From Escherichia phage PNJ-9, in sequence record PQ100635.1: 64,000 nt of DNA. One strand, given 5' to 3'. Under the pieces are notes generated by a model that was not told where the DNA came from, searched no databases, and was given only the letters and a program-made list of their open reading frames with translations. Position 1 is the first letter of the stretch, and every line of letters begins with the position of its first letter. Made by a program: the position numbers and the translations under genes. This document shows, piece after piece, positions 3-55,404 of the stretch.

Positions 3-434
3 AAACGTATTCGCGAACTTGTTATTGAAAAGAATAAGCAAGCCGCTTCTAAGGAACGTGAAATTCGTAAGCTCTTGGCTGAAGGACAAGATGTTACCAT
101 GCATGCTAAGCTTGGTCTTCTGTATCGTCGAACTGCCGAACAACTTAATACAAAAGCCGACGGGTACGCTGCTATGCGAATTGAAATTGCTCGTAAGGTG
201 GTTGAACTTGATGATGCTCGTCAGAACCTGGCAATCAAACTTGAATACATTCGTGAAACTCGAGCGGCCAATGCCCTTGGTATCTCTACGGCTGATGATG
301 TAATTGAAATCGCTGCACTGACTAAGGTTGATATCGAAGACACTCTGACTCGTGTTGAAACGTTCAATGGCACTCCAGCTGGTGTCGAAACCACTTCTGC
401 TGATGTACAAGAATATATTAACTCTTTGAAATAA
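3..434 (+). CDS. hypothetical protein, 5' end truncated by window edge
   Basis: Open frame from window start to TAA at 432-434; followed by stem-loop/T-run terminator. Confidence 0.55.
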
Positions 435-442
435 AATAATAC

Positions 443-464
443 GGAGGACTCCGGTCCTCCTTTT
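443..464 (+). terminator. intrinsic terminator
   Basis: GGAGGAC-TCCG-GTCCTCC stem-loop then TTTT. Confidence 0.65.
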
Positions 465-483
465 GGATAATAAAGGAGTTAAC

Positions 484-1080
484 ATGCGAAACCAAAATAA
501 TGATATTGACTCAATGTTCGAAGAGTTCCGAGATAAGGTAAATCCACCTACGTCTTTAGTTGATTCATTACGATATGTTGCAACTGGACGTAAATGGTAC
601 TGGTCGTCTTCTTATGAGACAACTGAATATGCAAATAACCGAAAATCTTTATTAGCCCCAGGTATTATGATTCATGATATCGGAGCTATTGCTAAACTAG
701 TTGCAGACCATGATATTAGATTCACTGATTTCGTTGCTCCTACGTGGTCTGTTTGTTGTTTAAACACTGAATGGGAATATATCAGCGAACGCTCTGAAGA
801 TTATTATGGTTTTAGAGACAAGCTTTTAAGGTCTAACATGTTTTATATTGATACAGAAGTTCTGGTCAATAATAAAAAATATTACTTTACGTTAATCGTC
901 GATTCTGAAACTATGTATGAAGGCAAGCCTTTGCTTAAAAGAGTTGATGCTTTAAGTGCTATTGATGCGCTTTATGAAACTATGGTTGTTAGTCCTAATT
1001 TCACTAACAATTTAATCCTTGAGCAATTTATTATGGAATGTAGAGAATATGTCAAAGCCAACCCTATACATGCCAAGTAA
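484..1080 (+). CDS. hypothetical protein
   Basis: ORF track 463-1080; first ATG at 484 preceded by AAGGAG. Confidence 0.6.
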   Translation: MRNQNNDIDSMFEEFRDKVNPPTSLVDSLRYVATGRKWYWSSSYETTEYANNRKSLLAPGIMIHDIGAIAKLVADHDIRFTDFVAPTWSVCCLNTEWEYISERSEDYYGFRDKLLRSNMFYIDTEVLVNNKKYYFTLIVDSETMYEGKPLLKRVDALSAIDALYETMVVSPNFTNNLILEQFIMECREYVKANPIHAK

Positions 1081-8872: not shown

Positions 8873-9412
8873 ATGAGAACATTTTTAACTGGACCTTATC
8901 TATCCCTGATGAATGCTTTTACACACCATTCTGATGCTAGAGTAGAAGAAATTTGTAAGAACGGTTATGTCCCACCATTTGAAGACGTACTCAAGCAGTA
9001 CTGTACACTTCGTTTAGACGGTGGCAGACAATCAGGTAAATCGACCGCAGTAACTAATTTTGCTGCTAATTGGCTGTATGACGGTGGAACAGTTATTGTT
9101 CTTTCTAATACTTCAGCTTATGCTAAAATTTCTGCTGGCAACATTGAAAAAGAATTTTCTCGTTATTCTAGCGACGATATTCGATTCCGTTTATTTACTG
9201 ATTCTGTCCGTAGTTTTATTGGCAATGAAGGTTCTAAATTCCGTGGATTAACGCTTTCTCGTATTCTGTATATAATTGACGAGCCTATTAAAGCTCCTGA
9301 TATGGATAAGATTTACAACATACATATTAAAACAGTCCAACACTGTTGCAAAAGCAAATATTGCATCGGCGGTATTGCTCGTCCTCAATTTTTTGTGATT
9401 GGAATGCAATGA
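8873..9412 (+). CDS. hypothetical protein with Walker-A-like GGRQSGKST
   Basis: ORF track 8834-9412; ATG 8873 follows repeated GCCCCAAACCTTAAGAGAAA element. Confidence 0.5.
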   Translation: MRTFLTGPYLSLMNAFTHHSDARVEEICKNGYVPPFEDVLKQYCTLRLDGGRQSGKSTAVTNFAANWLYDGGTVIVLSNTSAYAKISAGNIEKEFSRYSSDDIRFRLFTDSVRSFIGNEGSKFRGLTLSRILYIIDEPIKAPDMDKIYNIHIKTVQHCCKSKYCIGGIARPQFFVIGMQ

Positions 9413-9717
9413 TGACCACTATTGAAGTTTTTGAGTATTGTTATAACAGCCCAGTATGCAATAAAAGGGCTCTTGTAGAAAATTACGAGATTTACCATTT
9501 TAAACCTAAACGATATCGTTTGACTAAAGGTCCGTTCGCAGGGCAGCAGGTTCTTTGTACTGCTCCTAATGCACGGTTGATGACTAGTATTCCGCATTTC
9601 AAAATGGAATTTACTGATGGGCCATTTAAGGGATTAATCACTCAAAGTTTAATGGCGTTTAATTCCGACCCATTTTTGATTAAAGAAAAATCTTGGATAA
9701 ATTTATTTTCTAATTGA
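9409..9717 (+). CDS. hypothetical protein
   Basis: ATGATGA overlap with upstream stop. Confidence 0.5.
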   Translation: MMTTIEVFEYCYNSPVCNKRALVENYEIYHFKPKRYRLTKGPFAGQQVLCTAPNARLMTSIPHFKMEFTDGPFKGLITQSLMAFNSDPFLIKEKSWINLFSN

Positions 9718-9723
9718 GGTTAT

Positions 9724-10086
9724 ATGAAAGCATATCAAATTCTTGAAGGTGAACATAAAGGCACTATTTATTTTGAAGACGGTACTCAAGCCCGGATTAT
9801 TGTCTCTAAGACTTTTAAAGAAGACGCTATTGTAGATCCAGAAATTTTCTACGGTTTGAATGCTCGTGAAATTGAAATTGAACATCAACCTAAAGTTAAA
9901 ATTGAAGGTGGTCAGCACCTGAACGTTAACGTTCTGCGTCGTGAAACTCTGGAAGATGCAGTTAAGCATCCGGAAAAATATCCGCAGCTGACCATCCGTG
10001 TATCCGGATATGCAGTTCGCTTTAACTCTCTGACTCCGGAACAGCAGCGCGACGTTATCGCTCGTACCTTTACTGAGAGTCTATAA
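9724..10086 (+). CDS. hypothetical protein
   Basis: ORF track; GAGG upstream. Confidence 0.6.
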
Positions 10087-10310
10087 TGGCTAAATTGATT
10101 ATAGAAGGGTCTGAAGATGTTTTAAAATGTTTTGCCGCCTGGTTTAGTTGCTCAGGCGAGCAATCATTCATTGAAGCATTTAGAATGGGTGATATTACTG
10201 GAAACTATCCGGCAACTGATATCACTGTACGTGGATATGGTATTAATGAGCCTATCCAATTGGTCGAATATGACCTTGCCACCGATGAGGAAATTCCTTA
10301 TGTCGATTGA
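10086..10310 (+). CDS. hypothetical protein
   Basis: TAATG overlap. Confidence 0.55.
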   Translation: MAKLIIEGSEDVLKCFAAWFSCSGEQSFIEAFRMGDITGNYPATDITVRGYGINEPIQLVEYDLATDEEIPYVD

Positions 10311-22770: not shown

Positions 22771-23075
22771 TGAAACTACGTCTTTTAGAGGATATTGATA
22801 TGAGCACTAATCACGGCTTGGTTAAGTTTATTGACGATAGTTCAAAGATTGAATTTGTTCAGCGAGATAAAATCCACGGTGAAGAAGAGTTCGTTCCTCC
22901 AGCATGGAACGAAATCATGAAAATGGTTGAACGACGTGAAAATGCTGCCAAATCGGCAGCAAAACATCCATGTCCGGAATGTGGAACTATCCAAGTCCAA
23001 CTGGTTAACTGGACCACTGATAACTTGAAATTGAAATGCCGTAAATGCTTCCACAAATTTGAGAGAACATTATAA
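22770..23075 (+). CDS. zinc-ribbon protein
   Basis: CPECG...CRKC four-Cys motif; TAATG overlap. Confidence 0.55.
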   Translation: MKLRLLEDIDMSTNHGLVKFIDDSSKIEFVQRDKIHGEEEFVPPAWNEIMKMVERRENAAKSAAKHPCPECGTIQVQLVNWTTDNLKLKCRKCFHKFERTL

Positions 23076-23488
23076 TGAGATATAGCCTTCGTTGTTTTAT
23101 CGCAGCTTTAGTTTTTGCTATTATTCCATTCATTTGGAACAGCCAGAATACTTACATGGAAACTAAAGTAATTCCTGTGGAGGTAGTGGAATTAATCTCA
23201 GGCCAATCTACAGGAAAATATTCTAAATTGGAATTTATTGCAGTTTATAAAGATGAACAAGGTCGAGTTTTTGACAGGCATGTATCACCGTCGTTTTATA
23301 CGCTTCTGAATAAAGGTGATACGATAGCTATAGAAATTCGTGAGATGGATATCAAACAAACTACTAAAGATAACTTGATTTGGTTCTTTGGTACAGTGTT
23401 GTTGGTTTCTATCTGTATCACAGGTTTTATTACATGTATTGTATTTGGCATTGCATATTTAATCGATGAAAGGAAAAATAATGTTTAA
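23075..23488 (+). CDS. membrane protein
   Basis: N- and C-terminal TM helices. Confidence 0.55.
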   Translation: MRYSLRCFIAALVFAIIPFIWNSQNTYMETKVIPVEVVELISGQSTGKYSKLEFIAVYKDEQGRVFDRHVSPSFYTLLNKGDTIAIEIREMDIKQTTKDNLIWFFGTVLLVSICITGFITCIVFGIAYLIDERKNNV

Positions 23489-23744
23489 AGTGTACGGGTA
23501 CGACTCTACTATTCATAAATGCATTTATTGCGATAATGCGAAACGATTGCTGACTGTTAAGAAACAGCCATTCGAATTCATTAATGTTATGCCAGAAAAA
23601 GGTGTTTTTGATGATGAGAAAATTGCTGAGCTTCTGGTTAAGCTTGGACGTGAATCACAAGTCGGATTGACTATGCCTCAAGTGTTTGCTCCTGATGGAA
23701 CTTCGATCGGTGGCTTTGACCAACTACGAGAATATTTTAAATGA
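23481..23744 (+). CDS. nrdC: glutaredoxin/thioredoxin NrdC
   Basis: MFKVYGYDSTIHKCIYCDNAKRLL... near-identical to T4 NrdC; CxxC active site. Confidence 0.93.
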   Translation: MFKVYGYDSTIHKCIYCDNAKRLLTVKKQPFEFINVMPEKGVFDDEKIAELLVKLGRESQVGLTMPQVFAPDGTSIGGFDQLREYFK

Positions 23745-24097
23745 CATATTCATTAAATCTTAAAGATTTCCAAGATGTATACGAAGTTTGTGCCAATGAA
23801 CTTGGTCCTGATGCTCCAACTATTATTGAAGTTTTAAATGTGCTCCCTTCATCATTAGCTTACGAAGCCAAATCATGGGGTTGGAACGACACTGTCGTTC
23901 GTGATGACCTTTACGTCCTGATGAACGATATGATGCTTAAAAAGGCAGAACCGGTTGCACCAATGGTTACCATTACCGTTGAAGAATATAATCGCCTGCA
24001 AGCCATTGAAGAGCTTCTGTGGAACATTGAATGTGACCTGCCATCCGGACTAGAATCCTGGATTGATTATGAAGAGCTCAATAAACTCCGGGGTTAA
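23741..24097 (+). CDS. hypothetical protein
   Basis: ATGA overlap. Confidence 0.55.
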   Translation: MTYSLNLKDFQDVYEVCANELGPDAPTIIEVLNVLPSSLAYEAKSWGWNDTVVRDDLYVLMNDMMLKKAEPVAPMVTITVEEYNRLQAIEELLWNIECDLPSGLESWIDYEELNKLRG

Positions 24098-24146
24098 ACC
24101 GTGGTATTCGGCTCGATGGGAGACAGTCGAGCCAGACGTCGAAACA

Positions 24147-24176
24147 GTTTACAATGACGAAGAAACGTGTTATGAT
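24147..24176 (+). promoter_or_regulatory. early-promoter-like element
   Basis: GTTTAC, 18 bp, TATGAT. Confidence 0.4.
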
Positions 24177-24225
24177 GAACCTTCAATAAATGAATTAATT
24201 GATATGGAAATGGGAAGAGATTATT

Positions 24226-24396
24226 ATGCAAGTTAAATTATTGTACCGTTTATTAAAAAATGGCAAGCATGATTGGTATTTGCTTATTAAAACCGATCCG
24301 AATTTTTTCTCTGGACAACCATTTACAGTTCGTCCTACTAAACGTCAGCTTCGCAAAGCTAAACGTTCCCATCGTAACTTTTATAGAGAATATTGA
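24226..24396 (+). CDS. small basic protein, RPTKRQ-tail family
   Basis: C-terminus VRPTKRQLRKAKRSHRNFYREY. Confidence 0.45.
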   Translation: MQVKLLYRLLKNGKHDWYLLIKTDPNFFSGQPFTVRPTKRQLRKAKRSHRNFYREY

Positions 24397-24397
24397 T

Positions 24398-24811
24398 ATG
24401 AATATTTCTGAAACTCGCGGTAAATGGTTCAAGATTGTTAAAGAAGACGAAGAACTCCAAGATAAGTTTCCTGAATTAAAGAAAGATACGATCATCAAGG
24501 TAATTGGTACTACTACCGAAGATGGTTATGGCGACCATGGCATTATCGAAGTGATGTTGAACACAGGTGAGAAACTTTGCATCTATGACCGTGATACTTC
24601 TCTTTGGTGCTTCTGGGAATCCCATTCAATAGATGAACTCGAAGAAATTGACCAAGTAGTTTGTGATGGTGGACTTGGCGAATTCGAAGGTGAACGTATT
24701 TCTTATGCTTTAGCTAAATTAGCCGCCCAAGAAAATAATGACGGTTATGAAGGTAATCTGATGCAAGCCGCAGCGGAATACATTGAATATTTAGAAAGAC
24801 GTTTAAGTTAA
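24398..24811 (+). CDS. hypothetical acidic protein
   Basis: ORF track 24260-24811; ATG at 24398. Confidence 0.55.
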   Translation: MNISETRGKWFKIVKEDEELQDKFPELKKDTIIKVIGTTTEDGYGDHGIIEVMLNTGEKLCIYDRDTSLWCFWESHSIDELEEIDQVVCDGGLGEFEGERISYALAKLAAQENNDGYEGNLMQAAAEYIEYLERRLS

Positions 24812-24820
24812 GGGCTTATT

Positions 24821-25000
24821 ATGAAAACTGCATTATTTTTTGGCGAAAGAACAAACGGTCAAAAATCTTGGAAATTTGTTATAATTGGTGCTCCAAACAA
24901 TCCGAACATGAGGACTTCAATCATTTCGGTAACACGTCCTACTAAAAGAATGATTCGCCAATACAAACGTTTCCATCGTGACTTTTATAACATTTATTAA
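24821..25000 (+). CDS. small basic protein, RPTKR-tail family (59 aa), not on ORF track
   Basis: C-terminus TRPTKRMIRQYKRFHRDFYNIY paralogous to 24226 ORF. Confidence 0.4.
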   Translation: MKTALFFGERTNGQKSWKFVIIGAPNNPNMRTSIISVTRPTKRMIRQYKRFHRDFYNIY

Positions 25001-25002
25001 AT

Positions 25003-25034
25003 TATAAATACCCTTATCTAATATGGTAAGGGTT
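25003..25034 (+). promoter_or_regulatory. late promoter TATAAATA plus RBS-sequestering hairpin upstream of gene 49
   Basis: TATAAATA at 25003-25010; CCCTTA/TAAGGG inverted repeat with 3' arm overlapping the SD. Confidence 0.55.
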
Positions 25035-25038
25035 TATT

Positions 25039-25512
25039 ATGTTATTATCTGGCAAATTATACAAAGAAGAAAAACAAAAATTTTATGATGCACAGAATGG
25101 TAAGTGTCCTATTTGCCACCGTGAATTAGACCCTGATGTTCAAGGTAACCATCTTGACCACGACCACGAATTAAACGGGCCAAAAGCAGGTAGAGTTCGT
25201 GGGTTACTCTGTAATCTGTGCAACGCAGCAGAAGGCCAAATGAAGCATAAGTTCAACCGTTCCGGTCTTAAAGGACGTGATGTCGACTACCTCGAATGGC
25301 TTGAAGCTCTTCTTGCTTATTTGAAACAAGATTATTCTGATAATAATATCCATCCTAATTTTGTTCCAGACAAAACTAAAGAGTTCTCAAGACTAGGTAA
25401 AGAGGAAATGATGGCTGAGATGCTTCAAAGAGGATTTGAATATAATGAATCTGATACCAAAACACAATTAATAGCTTCATTCAAAAAGCAGCTTAGAAAG
25501 AGTTTAAAATGA
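25039..25512 (+). CDS. 49: endonuclease VII (Holliday junction resolvase)
   Basis: MLLSGKLYKEEKQKFYDAQNGKCPIC...HLDHDHELNG matches T4 gp49; 157 aa. Confidence 0.95.
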   Translation: MLLSGKLYKEEKQKFYDAQNGKCPICHRELDPDVQGNHLDHDHELNGPKAGRVRGLLCNLCNAAEGQMKHKFNRSGLKGRDVDYLEWLEALLAYLKQDYSDNNIHPNFVPDKTKEFSRLGKEEMMAEMLQRGFEYNESDTKTQLIASFKKQLRKSLK

Positions 25513-26046
25513 AAATTGAAAAAGAAATTGAAGGATTAATTCATAAAACTAATAAAGATCTTTTGAACGAGAATGCTAATAAAGATTCTCGTGTTTTTCC
25601 AACTCAACGGGACCTTATGGCTGGTATTGTGTCTAAGCACATTGCCAAAAATACGGTCCCGTCTTTTATTATGAAAGCACATGAAAGCGGAATTATCCAT
25701 TTCCATGATATTGATTATTCTCCTGCTCTTCCATTTACTAATTGCTGTTTAGTCGATTTAAAGGGGATGCTTGAGAATGGATTTAAATTAGGCAATGCTC
25801 AAATTGAAACGCCTAAATCGATTGGTGTTGCTACTGCAATTATGGCACAAATTACTGCGCAGGTTGCTTCCCATCAATACGGTGGAACTACATTTGCGAA
25901 TGTAGATAAAGTCCTTTCTCCTTATGTTAAACGCACCTACGCAAAACATATTGAAGATGCAGAAAAATGGCAAATCTCTGATGCGTTGAATTATGCCCAA
26001 TCTAAAACAGAAAAAGATGTCTATGACGCGTTCCAGGCGTATGAGT
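25509..26046 (+). CDS. nrdD: anaerobic ribonucleotide reductase NrdD, exon 1
   Basis: Class III RNR N-terminal region; frame interrupted at 26046 by group I intron. Confidence 0.85.
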
Positions 26047-27079
26047 TAATTTAATTCAGGCTCATGTAAAACCGGTCTAAACGGGGAACCTCTCTAGTAG
26101 ACAATCCCGTGCTAAATGTTCTTTTGAACTAAATGCCTAACGACTAACCGTGATGAATGTAGCGGTGTAGAATAGAAGCTAATGCTATTCGAAACGGCCG
26201 GCATCGAAAGATGAAGATATAGTCTAATCTGCATGGCGACATGCAGCAGTCATCTTGTATAAATAAGATTATCTTATGAATACGAGGTGAAACAATGAAA
26301 TGGATAAAAAGACGTTGTACTAAAATAAAAGATAAAGACGCATTTACATACTTAGTTAAGTTTTCTAATGGTGACATTTATATCGGTTATAAAAAATTTA
26401 GAACAATTAAAAACAAGCCCACAAACTGGAAAACTTACACAACGTCATCTAAGTATATAAATGAACGCTTAAAAACTGATACACCTACTAAATGGATAAT
26501 TTTAAAAACATTTGATAGTTATAAAGATGCATTAAAACATGAAGAAGAGGTCATACGTAAATATTTTTATAGCAAAAAATGTTTAAATAAATCCATAGGC
26601 GGTAAAAAGTTTTATAAGCATCCGGATACTGAAGAACATATTCAAAAATTAAGAGATGCTCATAAGGGTAAAGTGTTATCCGAATCTCATAAAAACAATA
26701 TAAAATCTTCTGTAGCTGAATATTATGCTAAAAACGGAAGATCTAAGGAACATGTGCAAAATAATATCAATAGTCGAAAAAGTAAAAAACAAGTATCGAT
26801 AAAGCTTAAAAATAAAACTTTTAGAAGTTTTAAAAAAGCAGCGGAATATTTAAATTGCACTGAAAGTGAAGTCGAAACTCATCCTCTTGTTTTGAGTATT
26901 AAGACTACTATTCATAAAGTTCCTGAATATGTGGTTGTTGACGGTATTAAGTATACGTCTTATATAGAAGCAGCTAAAGCGCTAAATTTTCATCCTAGCA
27001 CTATAAAAGAACGTTGCATATCTATGGACTATCCAAATTTTGTTGTTTCATATAAACGGGCATGAATTTGCGACTCATG
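26047..27079 (+). mobile_element. group I self-splicing intron in nrdD (T4 sunY/nrdD-type), 1033 nt
   Basis: P1: exon UAUGAGU pairs with GCUCAUG with U.G at splice site; conserved core CTAAACGGGGAACCTCTCTAGTAGACAATCCCGTGCTAAAT; P10 CUGAAU pairs with AUUCAG; omega G at 27079. Confidence 0.85.
26295..27065 (+). CDS. intron-encoded GIY-YIG homing endonuclease (I-TevII-like)
   Basis: GIY-YIG-like FTYLVKFSNGDIYIGY; lysine-rich, AT-rich; located 3' of intron core. Confidence 0.8.
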   Translation: MKWIKRRCTKIKDKDAFTYLVKFSNGDIYIGYKKFRTIKNKPTNWKTYTTSSKYINERLKTDTPTKWIILKTFDSYKDALKHEEEVIRKYFYSKKCLNKSIGGKKFYKHPDTEEHIQKLRDAHKGKVLSESHKNNIKSSVAEYYAKNGRSKEHVQNNINSRKSKKQVSIKLKNKTFRSFKKAAEYLNCTESEVETHPLVLSIKTTIHKVPEYVVVDGIKYTSYIEAAKALNFHPSTIKERCISMDYPNFVVSYKRA

Positions 27080-28371
27080 CTGAATATAATGATGAAGTAA
27101 ATACACTTTTCAGCTCTAATGGACAAACGCCTTTTGTAACAATTACATTTGGCACGGGAACTGACTGGACTGAACGAATGATTCAGAAAGCAATTCTGAA
27201 AAATCGTATTAAAGGTCTTGGCCGTGACGGGATAACTCCTATTTTCCCTAAACTTGTTATGTTCGTTGAAGAGGGTGTCAATCTTTATAAAGACGACCCG
27301 AACTACGATATTAAGCAGCTTGCTTTAGAATGCGCAAGCAAAAGAATGTATCCTGATATTATTTCAGTTAAGAACAATAAAGCTATTACTGGTTCTTCAG
27401 TTCCTGTTTCTCCGATGGGCTGTCGTAGTTTCTTGAGCGTATGGAAAGATTCGACTGGTAATGAAATTCTTGATGGACGTAATAATCTTGGTGTTGTAAC
27501 ACTGAATCTTCCTCGTATTGCATTAGATTCTTATATTGGAACACAATTCAATGAACAGAAATTTGTTGAGCTATTTAATGAACGAATGGATCTGTGTTTT
27601 GAAGCTTTGATGTGTAGAATTAGTTCTTTAAAGGGTGTTAAAGCAACTGTAGCTCCTATTCTTTACCAAGAAGGTGCATTCGGGGTTCGTCTTAAACCTG
27701 ATGACGATATAATTGAGTTATTTAAAAATGGTAGAAGTTCAGTGTCCCTAGGATACATTGGTATTCACGAATTGAATATTCTTGTCGGACGTGATATTGG
27801 ACAGGAAATTTTAACTAAAATGAATGCTCGTCTTAAGCAGTGGACTGAAAGAACCGGTTTTGCTTTTAGTTTATATTCTACTCCTGCTGAAAACCTTTGT
27901 TATCGCTTCTGTAAACTTGATACAGAAAAATATGGAAGTGTAAAAGATGTCACCGATAAAGGCTGGTACACTAACAGTTTCCACGTTTCAGTAGAAGAAA
28001 ATATTACTCCATTTGAAAAGATTTCTCGTGAAGCCCCATATCATTTCATTGCAACAGGCGGTCACATTTCTTATGTTGAACTTCCAGATATGAAAAATAA
28101 CTTAAAAGGTCTTGAGGCTGTCTGGGATTATGCTGCACAACATTTAGATTATTTTGGTGTTAATATGCCAGTAGATAAATGTTTTACATGTGGAAGTACT
28201 CATGAAATGACTCCTACTGAAAACGGATTTGTTTGTTCAGTTTGTGGAGAAAGTGATCCTAAAAAGATGAACACCATAAGAAGAACATGTGGTTATTTGG
28301 GAAATCCGAACGAACGCGGATTTAATCTCGGTAAAAATAAAGAAATCATGCATAGGGTTAAACACCAATGA
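27080..28371 (+). CDS. nrdD: anaerobic ribonucleotide reductase NrdD, exon 2
   Basis: Continues frame after intron; C-terminal Zn site CxxC...CxxC and glycyl-radical region RTCGYLG. Confidence 0.85.
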
Positions 28372-28838
28372 ATTATGATAGATTTTATCCTTGCGATTTT
28401 GTGAATGGCCCTGGTTGCAGGGTCGTTCTTTTCGTTACAGGTTGTTTGCATAAATGCGAAGGGTGTTATAATAAATCAACATGGAACGCTAGAAATGGTA
28501 TTCCATTCACTGGTGAAACACTAGAACAATTGATTGAATGTTTGAATAATGATTATATAGAAGGATTAACTATAACCGGAGGAGATCCTCTCTATCCTGA
28601 TAACCGAGATGTTATTCATCGCATTGCTCAAACAGTAAAAAATCTTTATCCCAATAAAAGCATTTGGTTGTGGACAGGATATAAGTTTGAAGATATTAAA
28701 CAACTAGAAATGCTTAAATATGTTGATGTTATTATTGATGGGAAGTATGAGAAAAATCTTCCGACTAAAAAGATGTGGCGAGGATCAGATAATCAGCGAC
28801 TTTGGTCAAATACCGATGGGGTGTGGAAACATGATTAA
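28368..28838 (+). CDS. nrdG: anaerobic RNR activating enzyme NrdG (radical SAM)
   Basis: CLHKCEGC radical-SAM cluster motif; ATGA overlap with nrdD. Confidence 0.92.
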   Translation: MNYDRFYPCDFVNGPGCRVVLFVTGCLHKCEGCYNKSTWNARNGIPFTGETLEQLIECLNNDYIEGLTITGGDPLYPDNRDVIHRIAQTVKNLYPNKSIWLWTGYKFEDIKQLEMLKYVDVIIDGKYEKNLPTKKMWRGSDNQRLWSNTDGVWKHD

Positions 28839-53946: not shown

Positions 53947-54264
53947 ATGAAAACCATCGATTGTAAAGCAGAATTTAAGATTTTTTATCACGGTTCAAGT
54001 AGTTCAGCTAACATCGAAAACATGCTTTGTCCTCCTGAGGAAACAGGAGTTCTGTCTGAAACTGGACGTAAGAAAAACTTGGATCGTGTATTCTTTACTG
54101 AAGATATCGGTTTAGCAAAGATTTATGCAGGACGAGCAGCACGCTCTTATGGAGGTGAACCACGTCTCTATCGAGTAATTTCTCCGGTAGACGTAGTTCA
54201 AATGAATAATACTAAAGGTGCTACAGTTTATCACGCTGAATGGGCATTTTGCGAGGAAATATGA
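53947..54264 (+). CDS. hypothetical protein
   Basis: ORF track; downstream of promoter cassette. Confidence 0.6.
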   Translation: MKTIDCKAEFKIFYHGSSSSANIENMLCPPEETGVLSETGRKKNLDRVFFTEDIGLAKIYAGRAARSYGGEPRLYRVISPVDVVQMNNTKGATVYHAEWAFCEEI

Positions 54265-54452
54265 GCAAATTAACTAAAGTTACTTTTATCGGTTGGTTTA
54301 AAAGCGGCGAGATGTTCACTAAAGATATCATGTTATCAGGTGACCGTGAAGAAATCGAGTGGGTTACGGTACAACTTGCTGAAGTGAACAAAGCATTAGT
54401 TAAAGCATTTGTTAATGACGAGAAAGTTTTTGAAGCTGATTTCAGAGGATAA
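54261..54452 (+). CDS. hypothetical protein
   Basis: ATGA overlap. Confidence 0.5.
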   Translation: MSKLTKVTFIGWFKSGEMFTKDIMLSGDREEIEWVTVQLAEVNKALVKAFVNDEKVFEADFRG

Positions 54453-54453
54453 T

Positions 54454-54666
54454 ATGTATTCAACTGTGTTTAAACCATCAACATACGAATTTGCATCAAC
54501 TACACAATGGAAAGCTCTTATTCTGGAAGGATGGGAACTAATGATGGACTGTGAAGCATCTGAAAAGTTTCCACACGGCAAAGTGGACTTCGTTAAATTT
54601 GCTGTACGTCCGACTAAACGACAGATTCGTCAAGAAAAACGCAAATTTCGCAAAAGTTTAAAATAG
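54454..54666 (+). CDS. small basic protein, RPTKRQ-tail family
   Basis: C-terminus VRPTKRQIRQEKRKFRKSLK. Confidence 0.5.
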   Translation: MYSTVFKPSTYEFASTTQWKALILEGWELMMDCEASEKFPHGKVDFVKFAVRPTKRQIRQEKRKFRKSLK

Positions 54667-54726: not shown

Positions 54727-55095
54727 ATGAAAAAATTAATCGCTTTAGCAATGGTATTTGGATTAACCGGATGTGGTGCCCACGGCTTTATCCCTAATAA
54801 CGTTGGCCAACTGATTTACAATCCGAATGTTAAACAGTATGACCAACCTAAAGTTGAAGTGGAAGACCCGGTTACTGTAGGTAATCGAATGATTCAAGCT
54901 GATGCCCATGCTCAACGTTATCGTGACTCTGATACTGTAGCATTATCAAAAGAACAACGCGTTAAAGAACATTGTCTACAGGCTACTGAAATCGCATTCA
55001 TTCGCTATGTTGAAACAACTGGTAAAGAGCCTACCCAGAAACAAATCGCGAATAACTACGTCCGGTGTATTGAACGTTTAAACAAATTTAATTAA
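54727..55095 (+). CDS. lipoprotein
   Basis: Signal peptide with lipobox LTGC. Confidence 0.6.
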   Translation: MKKLIALAMVFGLTGCGAHGFIPNNVGQLIYNPNVKQYDQPKVEVEDPVTVGNRMIQADAHAQRYRDSDTVALSKEQRVKEHCLQATEIAFIRYVETTGKEPTQKQIANNYVRCIERLNKFN

Positions 55096-55155
55096 TTGGT
55101 TACACCAAAGTTAAAACAAGATATTATAAACATAACAAATCAAGAGGAAATTAAC

Positions 55156-55404
55156 ATGGAATTATTCGTAGCTAGTTCAGTAGCAGTTTTAATCGCAGGT
55201 ATTGGTTCAATCGTCATTTATATGTTGCCTTGGGTAATCGCACTTATTCGTGGCACAAAAAGCACAACAGCAATCTTCTTTGTATCTTTACTCTTTAACT
55301 GGACGATGATTGGTTGGATTGGAACTTTAATTTGGTCTATCGTTGCCGAAAAGAAATCTGCTCAGCAGCCTCAACAAGTAATTATTATTCGCGAAAAAGA
55401 ATAA
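55156..55404 (+). CDS. small membrane protein
   Basis: Two TM helices. Confidence 0.55.
   Translation: MELFVASSVAVLIAGIGSIVIYMLPWVIALIRGTKSTTAIFFVSLLFNWTMIGWIGTLIWSIVAEKKSAQQPQQVIIIREKE

Follow-up and report, generated by a model that had tools for sequence, protein, structure and literature searches.

Dmd (T4 gp61.5) and TifA are both small early phage proteins that neutralise a host endoribonuclease toxin, and in the genome considered here Dmd is encoded directly upstream of TifA. The two belong to unrelated sequence families (that of Dmd is Pfam Dmd, PF17587), and Dmd, by published accounts, acts by direct toxin binding rather than by RNA tethering. In lambda N and HIV Rev a short basic alpha-helix serves as the nucleic-acid contact, recognising specific RNA structures without packing against a beta-sheet. 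The basic helix of TifA is alike in kind but displays little sequence specificity (PMC10853763), and no homology is implied by the resemblance.

TifA belongs to the small number of phage counter-defence proteins whose mechanism has been worked out. Srikant, Guegler and Laub gave gene 61.4 the new name tifA and showed that its product inhibits ToxN, the endoribonuclease of the type III system toxIN (PMC9391042), which is an abortive-infection system (PMC9391042, PMC10853763). Neutralisation of ToxN has been published for TifA of T2, T4, T6 and RB69 (PMC9391042, PMC10853763), and the RB69 protein is a particularly good inhibitor; among these four phages toxIN has the least effect on RB69, and TifA_RB69 expressed alone from a plasmid gave the clearest T4 plaques on toxIN cells (PMC9391042). 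Guegler et al. found that TifA binds ToxN as well as RNA, and their AlphaFold model places a three-stranded sheet on a C-terminal basic helix with a Pro-Thr cap (PMC10853763). Lys and Arg residues run along one face of this helix, while the sheet and loop side contacts ToxN; a protruding loop of about 20 residues, which includes residue 41, was proposed to provide ToxN contact and specificity, and the helix is conserved where the loop region varies between TifA groups (PMC10853763). TifA_RB69 co-purifies with RNA and binds RNAs of 15-45 nt with a Kd of 0.36-2.3 uM; the P53A/T54A and K55A/R56A/R59A mutants lose both the co-purifying RNA and ToxN neutralisation, and in vitro the affinity of TifA is similar for RNA, ssDNA and dsDNA (PMC10853763). 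The outcome is a large ribonucleoprotein complex that holds ToxN, mainly on 16S rRNA, so that phage transcripts remain uncut (PMC9391042, PMC10853763).

TifA has been treated as a single gene next to dmd (PMC9391042, PMC10853763), and a dmd-tifA gene pair has been described (PMC9391042). The term 'paralog' is absent from the available text of both papers, which describes no paralogues within the same genome, and the homologues tested there are all of the 61.4 type, with lengths of 70-98 aa; the trees in these papers comprise 57 homologues (PMC9391042, PMC10853763). When six published homologues of TifA from other phages were tried against seven toxins, comprising six ToxN homologues and one TenpN, none of the toxins was neutralised (PMC9391042, PMC10853763); membership of the family is thus no guarantee of ToxN inhibition.

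Three open reading frames with a common basic tail

The window, by which we mean the whole 64,000-nucleotide stretch of Escherichia phage PNJ-9 analysed here, was assigned by sequence comparison to an RB69-like T-even phage, and its interval 23400-26400 shares 98-99% identity with Escherichia phages PNJ-6, SQ17 and JS09, all RB69-type T-even phages. An earlier note made from the letters of this DNA had drawn attention to three open reading frames with similar basic ends, here called copies A, B and C, and all three are present on the plus strand with the tails that it quoted. They and the two genes beside them are as follows.

24226-24396, plus strand: copy A, short TifA-family paralogue (RB69ORF089c equivalent), 56 aa from ATG, between gp49.1 and pin
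24331-24393, plus strand: basic tail of copy A, R36 P37 T38 and then a predicted helix with K39 R40 R43 K46 R47 R50
24398-24811, plus strand: pin (PinA, inhibitor of host Lon protease), Pfam Inhibitor_I24 at E = 3.4e-47, public annotations concur; not of the TifA family
24821-25000, plus strand: copy B, short TifA-family paralogue (RB69ORF087c equivalent), 59 aa, between pin and gene 49
24935-24997, plus strand: basic tail of copy B, R39 P40 T41 and then a predicted helix with K42 R43 R46 K49 R50 R53
54261-54452, plus strand: dmd (antitoxin against RnlA/LsoA), Pfam Dmd at E = 6.2e-22, directly 5' of copy C; not of the TifA family
54454-54666, plus strand: copy C, TifA (gp61.4), 70 aa from ATG
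54607-54663, plus strand: basic tail of copy C, R52 P53 T54 K55 R56, R59, K62 R63 and R66

Mechanical reading frames opened at an upstream TTG extend copy A to 65 aa and copy C to 85 aa; a Shine-Dalgarno-like sequence lies 5' of the ATG in all three copies. The proteins end in ...FTVRPTKRQLRKAKRSHRNFYREY (A), ...SVTRPTKRMIRQYKRFHRDFYNIY (B) and ...FAVRPTKRQIRQEKRKFRKSLK (C), and copy C numbered from its methionine reads R52 P53 T54 K55 R56 Q57 I58 R59, which is the motif RPTKRQIR noticed at the outset; P53, T54, K55, R56 and R59 within it are the very residues changed in the published mutants. The warning that length filtering would lose such genes is correct for a 60-aa filter, given the 59 residues of B and the 56 of A from its ATG. 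Though they fall below 60 aa, both are already carried in public genomes as hypothetical proteins, A as RB69ORF089c (annotated in JS09 and JK45) and B as RB69ORF087c, and each of A, B and C has a public annotation.

Across all six reading frames of the 64 kb, the sequence RPTKR is found three times, against an expectation of 0.07 (the mean of 60 first-order Markov, dinucleotide-matched random sequences), and all three occurrences are on the coding strand, 14-16 residues ahead of a stop codon. The shared tail therefore stands well above chance, which disposes of the possibility, raised in the earlier note, that the motif lies within chance expectation. Alignment of the copies reveals six basic positions common to all of them, at P+2, +3, +6, +9, +10 and +13, a spacing that would bring the basic residues onto one face of a helix; in the alignment, a Trp and the Arg-Pro-Thr are invariant besides these six positions. 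A family HMM run over all six-frame segments of the window found A, B and C and nothing else below E = 0.25.

The Arg codons differ between copies (CGT, AGA, CGA and CGC) and the nucleotide identity of the motif is 63-80%, so the conservation is at the protein level and does not reflect a DNA repeat. A DNA-level repeat, such as a promoter or recombination cassette, was considered separately as the source of the shared motif and is ruled out by the frequent synonymous differences between the copies. The only long DNA similarity among the copies is that of A and B, 55 nt at 80% identity. This direct repeat (24331-24385 and 24935-24989) consists of the helix-coding parts of the two genes and flanks pin; by analogy with T4-type recombination between short homologies, it could mediate the loss or duplication of pin.

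Assignment of the three copies to the TifA family

In a tblastn comparison copy C is 100% identical to RB69 gp61.4 over its whole length of 70 aa, and it lies directly 3' of dmd, the position of T4 gene 61.4. Sequence identifies it as TifA, an already known protein, and its mechanism is most likely the published one, in which the basic helix anchors the protein to RNA and ToxN is contacted as well.

All three copies match the Pfam family DUF7279 (PF23945), with scores of 54.5 bits for A, 53.8 for B and 72.1 for C against a cut-off of 24.5. The same Pfam comparison gave scores of 57-73 bits for T4 TifA and for the six other homologues that PMC10853763 had tested. As the published TifA homologues all match it, DUF7279 is the TifA family; its Pfam label is still that of a domain of unknown function, and in the literature searched we found no paper that uses the term 'DUF7279'. 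The analysis thus ties an uninformative Pfam entry to a known function. The PHROG families separate the two types and also connect them: A and B fall in 3272 (B at E = 1.8e-30) and C in 2375, with cross-hits between both. Likewise, an hhalign comparison of twelve short-type with seven long-type sequences returned a probability of 96.6% over 38 columns, which extend from the W-containing strand across the loop and the third strand into the helix.

Pairwise similarity is lower, with identities of 26-31% between A or B and C and of 36% between A and B over their full length, and in BLASTP the similarity of A and B to C is limited to 14-19 residues of the motif. Word-indexed protein searches returned 5 and 21 proteins, every one of which carries PF23945. 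A HMMER scan of 1.84 billion representatives gave 10 matches at E <= 0.001, a size of database at which a 59-position profile is weak. NCBIfam holds no model for the family, and a sequence search of the PDB found no solved relative. Taken together, these comparisons make it almost certain that A and B belong to the TifA family, in which their sequences mark them as new, diverged and shorter members. No paper testing A or B was found in the literature searched.

Selection and predicted structure of copies A and B

Orthologue pairs of A and B have dN/dS ratios of 0.08-0.25 with dS of up to 0.75; the value for A against its NicPhage orthologue is 0.10, and Mosigvirus-type B copies give 0.08-0.23. 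These ratios indicate that A and B are real genes under purifying selection. The helix half has pN/pS values of 0.04-0.26, against 0.14-0.44 for the sheet half, and this constraint on the helix half parallels the published remark that the TifA helix is conserved and its loop variable (PMC10853763).

The AlphaFold2 model of A, built from an alignment of 21 sequences, has a mean pLDDT of 85.8, with strands at residues 2-9, 15-24 and 27-33 and a helix at 39-55 that begins directly after P37-T38. For B, a single-sequence model with a pLDDT of 66, weaker than that of A, has strands at 16-21 and 33-38 and a helix at 42-58. The fold predicted for A, a sheet and a helix, matches the published AlphaFold description of TifA. 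A Foldseek search of a viral library with the A model retrieved short-type proteins of phage PTK, Citrobacter phage Merlin and Salmonella phage S16; none of its best 50 matches is a named TifA entry, and Foldseek accordingly provides no independent structural link between A and TifA. The single-sequence model of B gave no match below E = 1 against the same library, its confidence being too low for the search to inform.

Comparison with TifA brings out what the short proteins retain and what they lack. Shared are the Arg-Pro-Thr cap, the six basic helix positions and the predicted sheet-plus-helix fold, along with similar DUF7279 scores. On the other hand, TifA_RB69 exceeds A and B in length by 11-14 residues, and T4 TifA does so by 26-29; the short proteins are without about 10 N-terminal residues of TifA, including a KPxxY segment, and they lie beside pin and belong to PHROG 3272, where TifA lies beside dmd and belongs to 2375. 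The segment from the Trp to the RPT has 18 residues in A and 21 in B, compared with 24 in C, and is thus 3-6 residues shorter; the model of A folds this segment into a tight beta-hairpin instead of a loop. These sequences and models suggest that the sheet module of A and B differs from that of TifA and is more compact.

Gene neighbourhoods and distribution

The gene order around A and B is nrdC, two small ORFs including gp49.1, A, pin, B, gene 49 (endonuclease VII) and nrdD, and the start of pin at 24398 is one base past the stop codon of copy A. C alone occupies the position directly downstream of dmd; A and B lie some 30 kb from there, one on each side of pin. Synteny with dmd describes the T-even orthologues and is not a trait that defines the family, published homologues occurring in other phage types.

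In Tequatrovirus PP01, in Gaprivervirus VR7 and in Mosigvirus, a B-type gene separates gene 49 from pin or a pin-like gene. Dhakavirus 005 has a B-type gene in the same nrdC region, with neither pin nor gene 49 annotated beside it. The Mosigvirus phages differ among themselves: NicPhage carries A without B, G2285 carries B without A, and LF82-41 carries the two together. Neither copy occurs in T4 or T2. Family members number three in RB69-type genomes, two in many other T-even phages and one in T4 and T2. This patchy presence of A and B is the pattern of accessory host-range genes.

Among the close Mosigvirus relatives A and B have been gained or lost independently of each other. The whole Mosigvirus-type A-pin-B block is found at 97% identity in Tequatrovirus JK45, which suggests exchange between genera. 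The interval between nrdC and pin holds a different small gene in PP01 (429-599) and T2 (9081-9251), a 56-aa ORF annotated as 'antitoxin from a toxin-antitoxin system', whose sole Pfam match is sub-threshold, to the T7 Gp5.9 RecBCD inhibitor at 20.4 against 24.5 bits; JS09 and JK45 have no annotated counterpart of it at that position.

The PinA tail of T4 and T2

The family HMM also gave a weak match, at E = 0.0085, to the end of pin in T4 and T2. The regions compared have the following positions in the sequences examined.

T4, 398-883, minus strand: pin
T2, 9705-10190: pin
PP01, 1055-1677: pin plus the B-type gene

T4 PinA has 161 aa and ends in ...ISFSDRMIQQYKRLHQMFYNT, PP01 PinA has 148 aa and ends in ...ISFSDRAF, and the B-type protein of PP01 ends in ...RPTKKMIRQYKRLHRMFYNT. 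In the DNA alignment T4 and T2 follow PP01 up to ...TCTGACCGA and then continue directly with ATGATTCAGCAATATAAGCGATTGCATCAAATGTTTTACAATACTTGA. Relative to PP01 they lack about 137 nt by column count, comprising the pin stop codon and roughly the first 43 codons of B, including RPTKK. The length of the deletion, 3n + 2, offsets the difference in frame between pin and B, so that the tail keeps its original reading frame. The alignment identifies the last 15 codons of T4 and T2 PinA (MIQQYKRLHQMFYNT) as an in-frame fossil of a B-type gene, and the fused tail implies that the T4/T2 lineage once had such a gene and lost it by deletion. PinA itself is an Inhibitor_I24 protein with another target; its tie to the TifA family is one of neighbourhood and gene fusion, not of homology between functional domains.

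Possible functions of copies A and B

We think it likely that the window holds three real TifA-family genes, of which C is TifA and A and B are diverged, RNA-binding counter-defence paralogues directed against RNA-targeting toxins. In this proposal we are most confident that A and B would bind RNA as TifA does, less so that they would act as counter-defence proteins, and least of all that their sheet modules would direct them to RNA-targeting toxins other than, or besides, the ToxN inhibited by TifA. The conserved residues and the predicted fold make it quite probable that A and B bind RNA through the same helix. The earlier suggestion that such tails bind nucleic acid or ribosomes has accordingly gained support, for C from published RNA-binding experiments (PMC10853763) and for A and B from their sequences and models. 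The further proposition that A and B neutralise an RNA-targeting host toxin is, in our estimate, evenly balanced. The differing sheet modules, together with the six family members inactive on all seven toxins, point to a partner for A and B other than the ToxN of TifA.

Some observations count against the proposal as a whole. By BLASTP, A and B resemble C in the motif alone; they are shorter in the segment that in TifA holds the loop of about 20 residues proposed to contact ToxN, and they are not next to dmd. Six family members were inactive on every toxin tried, the Foldseek search with the A model gave no named TifA entry among its best 50 matches, and a basic helix could serve another RNA-related role.

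The main rival reading is one of dosage, in which A and B would be extra doses inhibiting the same ToxN, and the resistance of RB69-type phages would arise from three family members and not from an intrinsic potency of TifA_RB69. Dosage does matter, as T4 overcomes plasmid-borne toxIN by amplifying tifA (PMC9391042), and RB69, the phage least affected by toxIN, carries three members of the family, compared with one each in T4 and T2; the section of PMC9391042 on TifA homologues, moreover, includes no RB69 tifA deletion. We nevertheless regard this reading as unlikely: plasmid-borne TifA_RB69 is already the best rescuer alone (PMC9391042), A and B share only 26-31% identity with C and depart from it in the sheet and loop region proposed for ToxN contact, and their distance of about 30 kb from tifA argues against a recent tandem amplification. 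A little less likely again is that A and B bind RNA in general or associate with ribosomes, perhaps as modulators of translation or mRNA stability early in infection, and have no part in counter-defence. Such a role would fit the conservation of a non-specific RNA-binding helix, the similar affinity of TifA for RNA, ssDNA and dsDNA (PMC10853763) and the several family members that neutralise no tested toxin. It accords poorly with the patchy presence of A and B and their loss from T4 and T2 with no effect on viability, which are typical of accessory or host-range genes and not of core regulators; in addition, the sole characterised family member is an anti-toxin, and the neighbours pin (of A and B) and dmd (of C) both act on host proteins.

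It is scarcely credible that the shared tail arose by chance from AT-rich, Lys-rich sequence and that the short ORFs are not genes. They are indeed very short, at 56 and 59 aa, and A shares bases with a longer mechanical ORF of a different frame (24260-24811), but that 183-aa ORF is pin with an unreal 5' extension, the real pin starting at 24398. Three RPTKR occurrences against 0.07 expected, Pfam matches far above the cut-off, low dN/dS with many synonymous changes and a position kept across four genera all speak against chance. That A and B are non-genes is ruled out by the Pfam scores, the dN/dS of 0.08-0.25 and the conserved position.

Returning to A and B as diverged counter-defence paralogues, we offer one broader idea as tentative and perhaps doubtful. 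The PT-capped basic helix may be a reusable 'RNA anchor' carried on interchangeable beta-sheet modules, each of which would trap a different RNA-targeting toxin on bulk RNA. If this were true, A and B would provide two further specificities and the pin region would be a second anti-toxin island beside dmd-tifA-adfA; the possession of three such proteins would account for part of the broader resistance of RB69-type phages, and T4 and T2 would have lost one through the deletion that made the PinA tail.

The gain from the present analysis is modest, a better annotation and no new principle, since C was known and A and B are new to the family. A and B are immediate candidates for inhibitors of other RNase toxins. 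Their presence is also a caveat to the view that the resistance of RB69 to toxIN rests only on a more potent TifA.

Further features near the pin and dmd regions

Directly upstream of dmd, a 105-aa ORF (53947-54264) contains FYHGSSS and has no Pfam match; given the published idea of an anti-toxin island in the dmd region, it is a candidate anti-toxin. Downstream of tifA, the interval 54727-55404 holds two ORFs, one for a predicted lipoprotein (DUF5481, E = 4.7e-9), the other for a small membrane protein that carries a superinfection-immunity domain (Imm_superinfect, E = 1.5e-15).

At 25003-25010, just before gene 49, is a sequence resembling a T4 late promoter, TATAAATA; a consensus promoter scan gave counts near background, and we claim no promoter. 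A 9-bp hairpin follows at 25010-25033, and its 3' arm contains TAAGGG, the Shine-Dalgarno sequence that serves gene 49 (ATG at 25039). The layout of 25003-25041 resembles the known arrangement at T4 gene 49, where early transcripts hide the ribosome-binding site. The same gene 49 hairpin is annotated as a terminator in the record of phage G2285.

An Rfam scan of 23000-28500, group I introns included, gave nothing at the gathering threshold. The nrdD gene is split in the window into a 181-aa N-terminal piece (25509-26054) and, after it, a 256-aa ORF (26295-27065) that is annotated as the I-TevII homing endonuclease in phage JK45; nrdD is uninterrupted in JS09. Finally, endonuclease VII ends in KKQLRKSLK (25486-25512), which resembles the KRKFRKSLK end of TifA (54637-54663), and this is probably a coincidence between two basic C-termini.
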